DNA from: Escherichia coli
GTDB lineage: Bacteria; Pseudomonadota; Gammaproteobacteria; Enterobacterales; Enterobacteriaceae
Length of the DNA stretch: 64,000 nt
Strand: one strand, 5' to 3'
NCBI RefSeq assembly: GCF_003019035.1
Contig: NZ_CP027447.1
The position numbers were made by a program, and so were the translations under genes. The notes below the pieces were generated by a model. The model saw nothing but the letters and a program-made list of their open reading frames with translations, did no database searches and was not told the origin of the DNA. The first letter of the stretch is position 1. Every line of letters begins with the position of its first letter. Of the stretch, positions 36,013-41,690 are shown in pieces.

Positions 36013-37425
36013 TCATTCCATTGCCCGATACACGGCTTCGCCAATTTGCTTCAGTGCTTCGCGATAGGTTTCGCTGAGCGGCAAAGCGCAGTTGATGCGC
36101 AGACAATTACGGTATTTGCCGGAAGCTGAGAAAATCGAGCCTGCCGCCACCTGGATTTTCATGCGGTATAGCTGCCGCGCAACGCAAACCATATCGACCT
36201 GTTCAGGCAATTCGATCCACAGTAAAAATCCGCCTTTCGGGCGCGTAATACAGATTTCGCAGGGAAAATATTCCCGTATCCAGCAGGTATAAAGCGCCAA
36301 ATTGCGCTGATAGATCTGCCGCATCCGCCGGATATGGCGATGATAGTGACCTTCCAGCACAAACGTTGCCGCCGCCATTTGCGTGGACGGCACATTAAAG
36401 CTGCTGATGGCATATTTCATATGCAGCAGTTTATCGTGATAGCGCCCCGGTGCGACCCAACCCACGCGCAGGCCTGGAGCAATACTTTTACTGAACGAGC
36501 TGCACAACAGCACTCGCCCGTCGATATCCCAGGAATGAATGGTCCGCGGGCGCGGATACTCCGTCGCCAGTTCGCCGTAGACATCATCTTCAAAAATCAC
36601 AATATCATGACGCTGAGCGAGAGAGAGAACGGCCCGTTTGCGCGCGTCCGGCATAATAAATCCCAGCGGATTATTACAGTTTGGCACCAGAATGATGCCT
36701 TTAATCGGCCACTGCTCCAGCGCCAGTTCCAGCGCTTCAACGCTGATGCCTGTTTCTGGATCGGTGGGGATTTCAATCACTTTCACGCCCATGCCGCGCA
36801 GCATCTGCATCGAACCGTAATAACAGGGGGATTCGACCGCGACAATATCGCCCGGTTTACACACTGCCATCAACGCCAGCGACATCGAGTTATGGCAGCC
36901 GCTGGTGATGATGATGTCATCGGCGGTGACCACCGAGCCGCTGTCGAGCATCAGGCGGGCAATCTGCTCGCGCAATACCCGCTGGCCGGCTAACAAGTCA
37001 TAACCGAGAACGGTTTGCAGATTATGCTGCACCACCCGGCTTAGCTCCCGCCACAGCGGTTTCAGGCTGGGCGTTTCGACATCCGGCGTGCTTTTACTTA
37101 ACGGAACAATGGAACTGTCGCTATGCGCCTCCAGCATATCCAGCACCTGATCCCACTGGGTAATTTCCACCGGGCGCTGCACCGGACGCGTCATCGGCGG
37201 TACTGGCGGCTGGGCTTTACGTTGTGCGACAAAATAACCCGAACGCGGCTGCGGAGTGATGAGCTTCATCGTCTCCAGCGTCTGGTACGCCTGCTGCACG
37301 GTGCTAATACTGACGCCGTGCTCCTGACTCAAGCTGCGCACCGACGGCAATTTCTCCCCGTGACGATACAGCCCTTGCTCAATCCGCTCTGCAAGCAGAG
37401 TCGCCAGATGTTGATAACGCGTCAT
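36013..37425 (-). CDS. yjiR: MocR-type transcriptional regulator (GntR HTH fused to PLP aminotransferase-like domain) YjiR
   Basis: 470 aa; N-terminal GntR HTH (LPSVRSLSQEHGVSISTVQQAY) followed by a fold-type I aminotransferase-like domain; same length and position as K-12 yjiR. Confidence 0.85.
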   Translation of the reverse strand: MTRYQHLATLLAERIEQGLYRHGEKLPSVRSLSQEHGVSISTVQQAYQTLETMKLITPQPRSGYFVAQRKAQPPVPPMTRPVQRPVEITQWDQVLDMLEAHSDSSIVPLSKSTPDVETPSLKPLWRELSRVVQHNLQTVLGYDLLAGQRVLREQIARLMLDSGSVVTADDIIITSGCHNSMSLALMAVCKPGDIVAVESPCYYGSMQMLRGMGVKVIEIPTDPETGISVEALELALEQWPIKGIILVPNCNNPLGFIMPDARKRAVLSLAQRHDIVIFEDDVYGELATEYPRPRTIHSWDIDGRVLLCSSFSKSIAPGLRVGWVAPGRYHDKLLHMKYAISSFNVPSTQMAAATFVLEGHYHRHIRRMRQIYQRNLALYTCWIREYFPCEICITRPKGGFLLWIELPEQVDMVCVARQLYRMKIQVAAGSIFSASGKYRNCLRINCALPLSETYREALKQIGEAVYRAME

Positions 37426-37601
37426 GCTGTATTCCTTATTTGGACCATACAGAGGGAAAAACCGGTACAGATGAGGCTAAAAAACCGGATGCAGATGCTG
37501 TTTTAACCTGTCTGTATGTTAAATAAAAGTAATGTTTGAATCTGTATTGTGAACTGCCAAAAGGCGGATGATGAAGCCTCTGAAAGATGAGGAGGCAGCA
37601 G

Positions 37602-37766
37602 ATGGAATTTCACGAAAACAAAGCTAAAGCACCGTTTATTGGACTTGTGCAACTCTGGCAGGCAGTGAGGACCTGGTGGCTGAAAAAGCAGACCCGGCGC
37701 GTGTTACAGCAGATGAGTGATGAGCGGTTGAGGGATATTGGGTTACGCAGGGAGGATGTGGAGTGA
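37602..37766 (+). CDS. yjiS: DUF1127 small protein YjiS
   Basis: 54-codon ORF below the track's size cutoff (MEFHENKAKAPFIGLVQLWQAVRTWWLKKQTRRVLQQMSDERLRDIGLRREDVE); ATG at 37602, TGA at 37764-37766; divergent from yjiR. Confidence 0.7.
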   Translation: MEFHENKAKAPFIGLVQLWQAVRTWWLKKQTRRVLQQMSDERLRDIGLRREDVE

Positions 37767-37807: not shown

Positions 37808-38146
37808 TTAGCGTGGCGTTTTGCTACTAATCACCCCAATAAAATCCTGCACCTGCTTTTGTTTACGCGCCGACAGCTTGCACACCTGGCGCAGCGACAG
37901 CATCAGTTCGCTCTCTTCGGCGGCGGGTGGTTGGGCGGTGAGGACAATACAGCCTTCCATCACTTTGACATCTACCGCCGTGCCGGTGGCAAAACCGGCG
38001 GTTTCCAGCCACTGACCTTTCAGGGTGATGGCGGGAATACGGCTGTAATCCGGGTAGCGACTCGCATAACTCACGGTTAATTGACGGTTATTTGCCGGGG
38101 AGACTTCTGCTTCGAACGGTTGTGCAATAGAATGCGTGTCAGTCAT
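37808..38146 (-). CDS. symE: SOS-induced toxin SymE (type I toxin-antitoxin toxin, AbrB-fold)
   Basis: 112 aa, [52 protein letters not shown]... matches E. coli SymE; lies at the distal end of the hsd cluster as in K-12. Confidence 0.85.
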
Positions 38147-38216
38147 GATTACTATTCCTTAGAAATAGGGATTGTGATTAGCGGTGCGGGTGTGTTGGCG
38201 CACATCCGCACCGCGC
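38140..38216 (+). ncRNA. symR: Putative SymR antisense sRNA (antitoxin RNA for symE)
   Basis: Assigned by position only: in K-12 SymR is transcribed antisense across the symE start and 5' UTR. A TAGAAT -10-like hexamer lies just upstream inside symE on the + strand, and a 9-bp-stem hairpin (GCGGTGCGG ... CCGCACCGC) occupies the predicted 3' part. Ends are approximate. Confidence 0.4.
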
Positions 38217-38223
38217 TAAATAC

Positions 38224-38360: not shown

Positions 38361-41300
38361 TTAGTTTAAAACACTCATATGATGTTCTTTAAAATTCTCT
38401 GCCTGTGCCAGCACTCCCATATAAACATCATCATTCGCTACTGGCGGGAACTTATGCTTGTGTAGAAGAAGAATAAGTTCAACTTTTAGTTTCGCTTTAA
38501 TATCATCGCGCTTACTCCAGTCAGGATATTTCGATGTGTTGTCAACCACGCTTTTCATCTCTTTTGCCAGTGACAGCATTTTTTCATCGTCATAGGTGAA
38601 CTGATATTTATCGCGCATATGAGCAAGAATGTCGAAAAACGCTTTTTCTTCAATATCAATACCTAAATCGGCCCATGTGCCCATTTCGGTTTTAATATCA
38701 TAGATAATATCGGTCATTTCCTGACTGAATGTATCGAATTCTTCACCGTTGAGTACATCATCTTCTCGCCGCTCATTATAACGATCTATAATCGCCTGGA
38801 AGCGGCGGGTGAAGTTAATCCCTTGCAACTGGTTCACTTTCTTGAAGTCGCTGATCGCTTTTTCCAGTAATTTTTGTAATAACTGGATCTTTGTTGCCGG
38901 AAGTTTGATCTTGTTAATTCGCGCCAGATAATCTTCGTCAAAAATATCGATGGATTCCGCTTTTTTATCGCCAAGAAAATAAATTTCTTCTACGCCATCA
39001 GCTTTTAGCGCTTCTGCAATCATTTCACGAACGCGTGCATTCATCTGGGTGACATCCGGTGCGTCACCTTTCGTCAGTTTGAAAACAATTGAACGAACAG
39101 CAAGATAATAGTGAATATGATCACGTTCTGTCTGTGATAGTGCTTCACTGCCGCAGCAGACGTCGTAGGCGGCTTTCATGCGTTTAACCAGTCCCATAAA
39201 ACGACGTTCAACTTTCTGGGTACGCAGAACAAATTCCGCCGCGCGGTTGAGGCAGGATAATTGCGCTTGTGGCTCACCACTAAAATAATCCCGACTGTCA
39301 AATTCGTAAAAGACTTGCCCCAACAAATCGAGATGGTTTTTAACTTCTATTACCGATTGCTGAATATCTTCAAAGTTGGTGGCATCAATGCGGGAATACA
39401 TTGCCAGTGCCTGGTTCATCTGACTTTTAATGCCGATGTAGTCCACCACTAACCCTTTACTTTTGCCTTCCAGTTTACGGTTAACGCGAGAAATGGTCTG
39501 GATAAGATTATGTTTTTGTAAGGGTTTATCAATATAGATGGTATCCAGTTCCGGGACGTCGAAACCAGTCAGCCACATATCAACAACAATGGCAATTTTG
39601 AAATTCGATTTAGCGTTTTTGAACTGCTTATCCAGCTCTTTACGATATTCTTTTGTGCCCAGTAAATCATAAAGCGCCTCGTCGTCATCTTTACCGCGCG
39701 TCATGACCATCTTCACCATTTCTGAAGGCGGTAACTCTTTCTGCTCCTGTTCCGTCAGGACGACGCCATCGGGGGCTTGCTTCACTTCAAACCAGGTAGG
39801 GCGAATAGCTTTAAGCTGGCGGTAGAAATCCCAGGCAATTTCACGGCTGGCACAAACAAACATGGCTTTGCCTTTTACGGTGGAACCTTCGGCTACGCGT
39901 TTTTCATAATGTTTAGCAAAATCTTCCGCGAGGGCTTTTAACCGATCTTCATCACCCAGTACCGCATTCATGGTTGCGGTGGCTTTTTTGCTTTCGTCGA
40001 TTTGCCACTCATTGGTGCCTGCGTTTGCGCACTCTTCGTAATACTTTTCGACTTCTTCCAGTTTGCTGGAGTCCAGGATCACTTTAGCCGCACGGCCTTC
40101 GTACACGATGCGTACAGTGATTTCATCCTGAACGGATTCGGTCATGGTGTAACTGTCGATCACCTCACCGAAGACATCGAGCGTCGCGTCAATCGGTGTG
40201 CCGGTAAAGCCAACATAGGTGGCGTTTGGCAGTGAATCGTGCAGGTATTTCGCAAAGCCATAAGTTTTGCGCACTTTTCCGCTTTCTTTATCGACGATGA
40301 CTTTCTGGTCGAGGTTAACCTGGCTGCGATGTGCTTCGTCTGAGATGCAAATGATATTGCTGCGTTCAGAAAGGAGTTCGGTGTCTTCGGTGAATTTATG
40401 GATCGTTGTCAGGAATACACCGCCACTATTGCGTCCCGCCAGTTGATTACGCAAATCTTCACGGCTGATAACAGGAACGATGGTGTCGTCGCCAATGTAA
40501 TTTTTGGCGTTGCACATTTGCGCAGAAAGCTGATCGTCCAGATCGGTGCGGTCGGTGATCAAAACAATGGTCGGGCTGGCAAACTCCACGCTCTTCATCA
40601 AAAGACGCGTTAAAAATTGCATGGTGTAACTTTTGCCACAGCCCGTTGCGCCAAAGTAGGTGCCGCCTTTACCGTTACCGAAAGGTTTACGCGCTTGCTT
40701 GATGCTGTAATAGAGTTTGCGGGCGGCATAGTACTGCGGATATCGGCAGCAAATTTTTACTTCGTGCTTAGCTTTATCCGGGAAGCAGATAAAGTTTTTA
40801 ATCACATCCAGCAGACGTACCGGATGAAACAGCCCCTGAATCATTGAGTGCAATGACGGAATTCCGTCCTGTTCACGGTTTTCATTACCGGTGACTTTGC
40901 GCCATGAGTAAAAATATTCATAGGGCGCAAACAGGTTGCCCATCCGGTTATTAACGCCATCGCTAATAATGCAGAGCGCGTTGTAGATAAACAGTTGCGG
41001 AATATCCCGGCGGTAGCGTTTACAGAGCTGCTTCCAGGCATCACCTATACTGGCTTCCTGCTCGCGCACCGCGCTTTTAAATTCAAAGACGACCAATGGC
41101 AGACCATTGATATAGAGAATGCCGTCAGGAATACGAGTCTGATTATCTTTGCCGGAGATTTTAAGCTGGTTAACAATCTTAATCCGGTTAAGCGGCGGAT
41201 TAATATAGGAGGGCGGGAGTTCTGCCGCCTGTTGCAACGGGACATCTTCGGCGTCAAATATCTGGCGCAGTGCGGCAGGTAGATGCCGGGTGTCGAGCAA

Positions 41301-41624
41301 TTCAATATAGAGATCTTTTTGTTGCCGATCGTCGCGTTTGAACAGAAAACCATTTGCCAGCCAGCGACAAAATGTTTTGTTGCTTTCATAAAGATCGGAG
41401 GCCGGAAGCGTGGTGAACTGTTTGATCAGTCGCTGAATCTCTTCTTCAGTAATGCCATCAGGCTGGTAGCGTGCCGCTAAATAATGACGGAGATCGTCTT
41501 CGATAATGACCTGATCGAGACTTGAACGAGGGACATTATCGCCGATCAGGTGTTGATATCCCTGATCCTGTAATAGTTCAATGATCGCTTGTTCTAATTT
41601 TGCTTCACTGAAAGAGAGACTCAT
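38361..41624 (-). CDS. hsdR: Type I restriction enzyme R subunit (HsdR), not EcoKI-type
   Basis: About 1087 aa; conserved nuclease motif (VVFEFKS), DEAD/DEAH helicase Walker A (GATGCGKSYTM) and helicase motifs. Start set at the ATG (MSLSFSEAK...) preceded by GGAG; the track ORF begins at an upstream TTG. The sequence and length differ from K-12 EcoKI HsdR. Confidence 0.88.
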   Translation of the reverse strand: MSLSFSEAKLEQAIIELLQDQGYQHLIGDNVPRSSLDQVIIEDDLRHYLAARYQPDGITEEEIQRLIKQFTTLPASDLYESNKTFCRWLANGFLFKRDDRQQKDLYIELLDTRHLPAALRQIFDAEDVPLQQAAELPPSYINPPLNRIKIVNQLKISGKDNQTRIPDGILYINGLPLVVFEFKSAVREQEASIGDAWKQLCKRYRRDIPQLFIYNALCIISDGVNNRMGNLFAPYEYFYSWRKVTGNENREQDGIPSLHSMIQGLFHPVRLLDVIKNFICFPDKAKHEVKICCRYPQYYAARKLYYSIKQARKPFGNGKGGTYFGATGCGKSYTMQFLTRLLMKSVEFASPTIVLITDRTDLDDQLSAQMCNAKNYIGDDTIVPVISREDLRNQLAGRNSGGVFLTTIHKFTEDTELLSERSNIICISDEAHRSQVNLDQKVIVDKESGKVRKTYGFAKYLHDSLPNATYVGFTGTPIDATLDVFGEVIDSYTMTESVQDEITVRIVYEGRAAKVILDSSKLEEVEKYYEECANAGTNEWQIDESKKATATMNAVLGDEDRLKALAEDFAKHYEKRVAEGSTVKGKAMFVCASREIAWDFYRQLKAIRPTWFEVKQAPDGVVLTEQEQKELPPSEMVKMVMTRGKDDDEALYDLLGTKEYRKELDKQFKNAKSNFKIAIVVDMWLTGFDVPELDTIYIDKPLQKHNLIQTISRVNRKLEGKSKGLVVDYIGIKSQMNQALAMYSRIDATNFEDIQQSVIEVKNHLDLLGQVFYEFDSRDYFSGEPQAQLSCLNRAAEFVLRTQKVERRFMGLVKRMKAAYDVCCGSEALSQTERDHIHYYLAVRSIVFKLTKGDAPDVTQMNARVREMIAEALKADGVEEIYFLGDKKAESIDIFDEDYLARINKIKLPATKIQLLQKLLEKAISDFKKVNQLQGINFTRRFQAIIDRYNERREDDVLNGEEFDTFSQEMTDIIYDIKTEMGTWADLGIDIEEKAFFDILAHMRDKYQFTYDDEKMLSLAKEMKSVVDNTSKYPDWSKRDDIKAKLKVELILLLHKHKFPPVANDDVYMGVLAQAENFKEHHMSVLN

Positions 41625-41690
41625 ATCGCGCTCCAACCCTGGCTAATTTCTGGTAAGCATTCCCGTATCAGTAGAAAACCTTACCAGAAA

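Follow-up and report, generated by a model that had tools for sequence, protein, structure and literature searches.

MocR Operators and the Predicted YjiR Regulog

The MocR-type regulators GabR, TauR, and PdxR are domain-swapped dimers in which each wHTH sits on one DNA box (PMC5320631). In the comparative survey of Suvorova and Rodionov (2016), MocR motifs are described as having mostly a TGT or TGG core and as consisting of two to four boxes in direct and/or inverted orientation, with two to three helical turns between direct repeats; the most frequent layout is "two direct plus one inverted" (PMC5320631). According to the same survey, MocR regulators usually repress their own gene and activate a divergent target when PLP and an effector are bound, and PdxR switches between direct and inverted box pairs with its PLP state (PMC5320631).

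A "YjiR - Enterobacteriales" regulog forms part of this collection (Suvorova and Rodionov 2016; RegPrecise). Its listed members are E. coli b4340 and the regulators of Citrobacter koseri, Enterobacter 638, Pectobacterium, and Klebsiella, and its target is COG5457, the YjiS/DUF1127 family, a family that is described as frequent in MocR regulons (PMC5320631). Because COG5457 is listed as the target of YjiR, the link between YjiR and yjiS had already been predicted in silico in 2016.

YjiR is among the remaining uncharacterised transcription factors of E. coli. Our literature search found no EMSA, footprint, ChIP, reporter, or genetic work on YjiR at the boxes described below; an EHEC in vivo induction study, a paper on biosensor insertion sites, a survey of unknown transcription factors, and a gSELEX review all mention yjiR and contain no operator data. 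The product of the divergent gene, YjiS, restrains the growth of Salmonella in macrophages, and the Salmonella study (2025) ascribes the induction of yjiS to SsrB with no mention of YjiR; it looked to SsrB and not to the regulator encoded 176 bp away (PMC11707872).

The yjiR-yjiS Locus

The window analysed here is a stretch of 64,000 nucleotides from the E. coli contig NZ_CP027447.1 (assembly GCF_003019035.1). The two divergent genes and the translation signal of the second are located as follows:

36013–37425, minus strand: yjiR, MocR-type regulator of 470 amino acids (open reading frame list and RefSeq annotation of the K-12-like orthologue)
37602–37766, plus strand: yjiS, small DUF1127 protein of 54 amino acids (Pfam PF06568 and RefSeq annotation), the presumed regulated target
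37589–37595, plus strand: GAGGAGG, Shine-Dalgarno sequence of yjiS

The spacer between the two genes, 37426–37601, is 176 bp long. An initial annotation, made from the sequence alone, had described a control region of ~175 bp between a MocR-type regulator and a DUF1127 gene, and the Pfam domains agree with this description. In YjiR, residues 4–66 form a GntR wHTH (PF00392) and residues 130–461 form a class I/II aminotransferase fold (PF00155). The PLP-lysine motif is retained as SFSK in the alignment with the aminotransferase lysine motif, and the full-length protein matches GabR (4n0b, E = 1.9e-21) and PdxR (7pq9). YjiR has the features expected of a regulator that acts on a MocR operator, namely an N-terminal GntR wHTH, a C-terminal fold-type-I aminotransferase domain, and the PLP lysine.

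The window comes from an Escherichia genome that falls outside typical E. coli; the nucleotide identity of the segment to most E. coli is ~93%, and its nearest match is Escherichia sp. E1V33. The yjiR-yjiS segment is present in 3739 of 5426 complete E. coli genomes, which makes the pair accessory within the species, in agreement with the patchy distribution of yjiR reported for EHEC (PMC6550539). Some genomes carry a damaged yjiR. The Enterobacteriaceae MAG MGYG-HGUT-00110 has an in-frame TAG at codon 24 and keeps all boxes, E. coli E69 gives a match to residues 1–142 of the YjiR query only, and E. albertii has only a yjiR fragment.

Directly after yjiS lies symE (37808–38146, minus strand). 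The antisense RNA of symE, symR, is found at 38141–38217 (93 bits); it is the only known RNA family that was identified with Rfam, and it is located outside the spacer. An open reading frame at 38361–41636, encoding 1091 amino acids, resembles a type I restriction R-subunit. In K-12, yjiT, yjiV, and mcrBC are located between yjiS and symE, and the window strain thus differs from K-12 in its version of the immigration control region.

Six Boxes in the Shared Spacer

The initial annotation had noticed the hexamer CTGTAT three times on the plus strand and its complement, as ATACAG or GTACAG, twice, and had put these copies forward as candidate YjiR operator sites. All five are present, CTGTAT at 37427–37432, 37512–37517, and 37542–37547, ATACAG at 37447–37452, and GTACAG at 37465–37470. 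The alignment of orthologous spacers described below shows that the repeated element is an 8-mer rather than a hexamer, with ATCTGTAT on one strand and ATACAGAT on the opposite one. It also reveals a degenerate box that had been overlooked. The resulting six boxes are:

37425–37432, plus strand: box A, TGCTGTAT; core CTGTA identical in 56 of 56 orthologues
37447–37454, minus strand: box B, ATACAGAG on the plus strand, consensus ATACAGAT, the reverse complement of ATCTGTAT; core 99.3% identical
37465–37472, minus strand: box C, GTACAGAT on the plus strand; core 99.6% identical, core centre 18 bp from that of box B
37489–37496, minus strand: box D, ATGCAGAT on the plus strand, degenerate, a one-mismatch match to ATCTGTAT; core 86% identical
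37510–37517, plus strand: box E, GTCTGTAT, consensus ATCTGTAT; core identical in 56 of 56
37540–37547, plus strand: box F, ATCTGTAT; core identical in 56 of 56

All boxes lie inside the spacer common to yjiR and its divergent target, the location expected of a MocR operator, and together they extend over ~120 bp. Boxes A, E, and F have the forward orientation and boxes B, C, and D the reverse orientation. From A to F, the core centres are 21, 18, 24, 22, and 30 bp apart, that is, ~2–3 helical turns, which is the MocR spacing. The array also has the TGT core and the mixture of direct and inverted orientations described for MocR motifs. Its six boxes, however, exceed the two to four of the published descriptions, which speaks against the MocR reading. 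The six boxes can be read as two triads, A/B/C and D/E/F, each of which has the "two direct plus one inverted" layout.

Of the 53 one-mismatch matches to ATCTGTAT in the 64-kb window, five are packed into 101 bp inside the spacer. An exact ATCTGTAT is also found at 36248, deep inside the yjiR coding sequence. The CTGTAT at 37366–37371 was considered as a seventh box and rejected. It encodes Leu19-Tyr20 of YjiR, is exact in 40 of 58 sequences, and varies synonymously in the same manner as the neighbouring codons, so its occurrence there is a coincidence.

Box D differs in Klebsiella. At four Klebsiella loci the box (TGCAG on the plus strand) is replaced by CTGTAC in the K. oxytoca group and by GTGTAC in K. 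pneumoniae. The replacement has the opposite orientation and is shifted ~4 bp rightwards, an apparent flip of one box (37489–37498).

Clustering and Conservation of the Boxes

CTGTAT is not enriched in the window as a whole, where it was found 25 times and expected 21.6 ± 4.4 times. Within the spacer, four exact copies of CTGTAT/ATACAG are grouped in 121 bp, and this hexamer reached four copies in 0 of 20,000 dinucleotide-preserving shuffles of the spacer. Some hexamer, whichever its sequence, reached at least four copies in 2.7% of the 20,000 shuffles, and the single sequence is therefore suggestive and only moderately significant. The initial annotation had made its claim depend on a hexamer frequency above expectation. 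Such an excess exists locally, as a modest clustering, and is absent across the window, so the case for the boxes rests on clustering together with conservation. Taken by themselves, the unexceptional frequency in the window and the 2.7% of shuffles favour the explanation that a frequent hexamer has clustered by chance in an AT-rich spacer and that close kinship is the only cause of its conservation.

Conservation was assessed among the relatives of YjiR. A scan of one genome per species gave 59 loci encoding YjiR relatives, and in 55 of them a divergent DUF1127 gene is located 176–183 bp from yjiR. The alignment consists of 55 orthologous spacers and the window spacer, 56 distinct sequences from ~15 genera, including Escherichia, Citrobacter, Klebsiella, Kluyvera, Lelliottia, Leclercia, Huaxiibacter, Silvania, Mangrovibacter, Shimwellia, Pseudescherichia, and Pluralibacter.

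Conservation in orthologous regions, the other point on which the initial annotation had staked its proposal, is pronounced. Five of the cores are 99.3–100% identical in the 56 spacers, while the DNA between the boxes is 68% identical, and random placement of five pentamers equalled the conservation of the boxes in 0 of 100,000 trials. The boxes stand as invariant islands in variable DNA, with almost no indels between them. Among the 56 spacers, box B is missing solely from one Pluralibacter MAG. In Salmonella Poona, boxes B, C, E, and F are exact and box A has one substitution (CCGTAT). The synonymous positions in the first 40 codons of yjiR vary freely in the same genomes in which the boxes are invariant, which indicates selection and not recent ancestry. 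Both the sequence and the spacing of the boxes are under strong purifying selection. The difference in conservation between the boxes and the surrounding spacer refutes a chance cluster, to which we assign a negligible probability. Part of the constraint on box A could be translational, as this box is placed between the Shine-Dalgarno sequence and the start codon of yjiR.

Boxes at Distant yjiR Homologues

A YjiR homologue with 50% identity (locus L062) belongs to a 90% cluster that includes Neptunomonas concharum, of the order Oceanospirillales, and faces a DUF1127 gene. The boxes at L062 follow in the same order, CTGTACAG, GTACAGAT, ATACAGAT, ATCTGTGC, and ATCTGTAT, with core spacings of 18/24/22/31 bp compared with 18/24/22/30 bp in the window. 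Between Enterobacterales and a genome of the Oceanospirillales type, the spacings thus differ by no more than 1 bp. The position of box D, degenerate in the window, is a perfect ATACAGAT in L062, and an exact TGAATCTGTAT is found 31 bp from the equivalent of box E. The L062 box beside the start codon has the other orientation than box A of the window. The recurrence of the architecture in another bacterial order, at 50% protein identity, is a further argument against a chance cluster preserved by kinship.

A YjiR homologue of Providencia (44% identical) is accompanied by GATCTGTAT and AATCTGTCAC, 24 bp apart. The divergent gene of this locus (L063, 911–1048) encodes a 45-amino-acid protein without a DUF1127 hit, and ATCTGT-type repeats persist upstream of it; the target may have been swapped at this locus. 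A 43%-identical homologue on an AT-rich metagenomic contig has neither boxes nor a DUF1127 neighbour and is uninformative. The common order and spacing at L062, together with the repeats in Providencia, show that the motif follows the regulator, and the boxes travel with yjiR homologues down to 44–50% identity.

The ArcA Site and Other Candidate Regulators

ArcA has been mapped to this spacer. An ArcA ChIP-seq peak was labelled yjiS/yjiR by Park et al. (2013), and in the supplements of that study an ArcA-P box with a score of 17.4 bits, ATGTTAAATAAAAGTAATATT, is located at K-12 4569688–4569708, corresponding to −43 to −23 relative to the mapped start of yjiR (PMC3798270). In an arcA mutant yjiR was up 2.9-fold, and the sigma-70 occupancy at yjiR was reduced anaerobically (PMC3798270). 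K-12 and the window align without indels at this site, which places the yjiR start (K-12 4569665) at ~37493, inside box D, and the ArcA site at the following position:

37516–37536, plus strand: ArcA-P box, ATGTTAAATAAAAGTAATGTT, between boxes E and F; published ArcA site

The published ChIP and expression data show ArcA to be a repressor of yjiR, bound between boxes E and F. The final two nucleotides of box E overlap this site. The most conserved long block of the spacer, the AT-rich and near-invariant GTTAAATAAAAGT between boxes E and F, owes its conservation to the ArcA-P box and would otherwise be creditable to YjiR. It is not a YjiR box, as the published site accounts for it.

An alternative is that a transcription factor other than YjiR occupies the boxes and that YjiR is merely encoded nearby. 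The candidates are ArcA elements, LexA half-sites, PhoB-type CTGTCA repeats, or an unidentified regulator. ArcA does bind the spacer, but the two repeat elements called by Park et al. are both inside 37516–37536 (PMC3798270), and the boxes are 27, 51, 69, and 90 bp from the ArcA site, distances that are not multiples of 11. The CTGTAT boxes were also considered as ArcA-P direct repeats and rejected, as TGTTA-type repeats with 11-bp phasing under the ChIP peak are found only at 37516–37536. For LexA, CTGTAT is a half-site and the LexA-regulated symE/symR locus is 600 bp away. However, 37426–37601 contains no CTGT-N8-ACAG even with one mismatch allowed, which excludes LexA.

The case for PhoB draws on the reported link of DUF1127 proteins with phosphate signalling (PMC12501420) and on one Providencia box, ATCTGTCAC. 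On the other hand, Pho boxes need tandem repeats of 11 bp, whereas the boxes at the YjiR locus are 18–30 bp apart. More generally, the boxes accompany yjiR homologues in the Oceanospirillales-type and Providencia genomes, in which the other regulators differ. Binding of the boxes by a factor other than YjiR is, in our judgement, quite unlikely, and the reading of the boxes as predicted YjiR operators is preferred.

Putative Promoters and the yjiR Leader

With the start of yjiR at ~37493, as given by the position of the ArcA site, and with the conservation pattern upstream of yjiS, the promoter elements would be located as follows:

37500–37505, minus strand: putative −10 element of yjiR, TAAAAC on the minus strand
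37567–37572, plus strand: putative −10 element of yjiS, GATGAT (pattern nAnnAT), with an implied start near 37579

On the yjiR side, TTTTA at 37501–37505 (TAAAA on the minus strand) is invariant or at least 90% conserved. Box D would overlap the transcription start, and box E would lie between the −10 and −35 elements. Boxes C, B, and A would be at about +23, +41, and +61 of a 68-nt yjiR leader, with box A covering about +61 to +68. On the yjiS side, positions 37568, 37571, and 37572 (hexamer positions 2, 5, and 6) are invariant in the 56 sequences, while hexamer positions 1, 3, and 4 are variable, and in L062 this distance from box F is occupied by TAAGCT. With yjiS starting near 37579, box F would take the place of a −35 element and box E would be ~30 bp further upstream.

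A consensus scan of both strands of the spacer for promoters and terminators found nothing, including no strong sigma-70 promoter, and a weight-matrix promoter scan gave weak, inconsistent candidates only. As a result, the promoter geometry and the sign of regulation depend on a single table value for the start of yjiR together with the conservation patterns. The absence of a strong sigma-70 promoter is compatible with a yjiS promoter that needs an activator. A SELEX peak of the RpoD holoenzyme has been reported in the yjiR-yjiS spacer, and the hexamers guessed in that study (TTCACA-19-TTTTAT for yjiR and TTAACC-15-TAAAAG for yjiS) are unlike those proposed here (Shimada et al. 2014, PMC3946193). 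By that guess yjiS would start near 37536 and box E would fall in the promoter spacer, which would imply repression. The portion of the genome-wide start-site data of Kim et al. 2012 accessible to us has no yjiR or yjiS entry.

Two RNA features were seen near yjiS. Ahead of the Shine-Dalgarno sequence of yjiS there is a conserved GCCTCT, whose pairing with GGAGGC can give an anti-Shine-Dalgarno hairpin (37576–37596). The RNA 37536–37620 folds at −22.3 kcal/mol (z = −2.76), and the helix is 85.5% paired over 57 sequences, compared with 46–63% when the partners are slid, with weak covariation. The hairpin matters only if the yjiS start is upstream of 37576. Sub-threshold Rfam hits to archaeal C/D-box snoRNAs at 37563–37604 come from TGATGA...CTGA in this strain and were rejected; other genera read GAAGATAAAG at these positions, so the resemblance is due to chance.

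If yjiR starts at ~37493, boxes A–C are transcribed, and they could act as RNA. The CUGUAU of box B and the AUACAG of box A would then be the arms of a hairpin around the Shine-Dalgarno sequence of yjiR, with translational control as its effect. Boxes A and B are indeed perfect complements, separated by 14 nt and placed on either side of the Shine-Dalgarno sequence, and the Salmonella change of CTGTAT to CCGTAT still permits a G-U pair. However, the yjiR leader folds no better than its shuffles (−13.5 kcal/mol, z = +0.31), and both arms are invariant over ~15 genera with no compensatory change, which is not the behaviour of RNA stems. Further copies of the 8-mer are found at C, D, E, and F, to which a pairing of A with B does not apply, and the reversed orientation of the box beside the start codon in L062 is likewise at odds with such a hairpin. 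An RNA function of boxes A–C is thus considered very improbable.

Proposed Action of YjiR

The predicted role of the six boxes as YjiR operators draws on their conservation, the MocR family context, and the published regulog, which together support the candidate sites of the initial annotation. We estimate the probability of this reading at roughly 75%. A YjiR dimer would place one wHTH on each of two boxes, and six boxes would allow several dimers or alternative pairings set by the PLP or effector state, of which PdxR is a described case.

With the promoter positions given above, boxes D and E overlap the start and the promoter core of yjiR and boxes A–C are in the transcribed leader, so that occupancy of D and E, helped by A–C, would shut off yjiR. 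Boxes E and F would be just upstream of, and over the missing −35 element of, a weak yjiS promoter, so that effector-bound YjiR at these boxes would turn on yjiS, following the logic of GabR, PdxR, and TauR. ArcA-P bound between E and F would add anaerobic repression of yjiR. We see even odds that the direction of control combines autorepression of yjiR with activation of yjiS, and the sign at yjiS is the weakest step.

A more far-reaching proposal is that the boxes are one fixed scaffold and not redundant copies. YjiR dimers would assemble or re-pair on it according to the PLP or effector state, with ArcA-P intercalated between E and F, and YjiS would tune two-component systems. The nearly fixed spacing in the two orders is the observation behind this proposal, as is the modulation of sensor kinases by DUF1127 family members, which has been described for PhoR in Agrobacterium and for SsrA/B in Salmonella. 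We regard the proposal as unlikely. If it were true, the MocR-DUF1127 pair would be a widespread module that passes an amine/PLP signal and the redox state to the tuning of two-component systems.

Comparison with Known Systems

Judged from its sequence, the yjiR-yjiS spacer appears to be an ordinary, well-conserved MocR autoregulatory region that had already been predicted computationally, and the value of its analysis would be practical and not conceptual. The box map offers a precise handle on the YjiR-yjiS link, on effector screening, and on the separation of YjiR control from ArcA control.

The closest described case is the YjiR regulog itself, which is concerned with the same regulator and the same predicted target and likewise relies on phylogenetic footprinting of the divergent upstream region (PMC5320631). 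The comparison with the part of the regulog description accessible to us is by regulator and target, and not by motif. The present analysis goes beyond the 2016 regulog in the six-box map, the spacing kept as far as a Neptunomonas-type genome, the separation of the ArcA and YjiR sites, and the promoter model, and both are purely computational. The ArcA-P operator at yjiR shares the spacer with the YjiR boxes but is an element of its own, set between E and F, and differs from them in its TGTTA-type repeats and 11-bp phasing.

GabR of Bacillus subtilis (gabR-gabT) is like YjiR in having a divergent target and direct-repeat boxes several helical turns apart in the shared region, and it represses itself and activates its target on binding PLP and effector (PMC5320631). 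[quoted passage not shown] The target of GabR is an aminotransferase operon, whereas that of YjiR is presumed to be a small DUF1127 protein. The PdxR operators of Bacillus clausii, Corynebacterium glutamicum, and Listeria resemble the YjiR array in their mixed direct and inverted boxes in a divergent spacer, and differ from it in box sequence, in having three boxes instead of six, and in a target that functions in PLP synthesis. For an array whose boxes outnumber those that a single dimer can occupy, PdxR provides the precedent.
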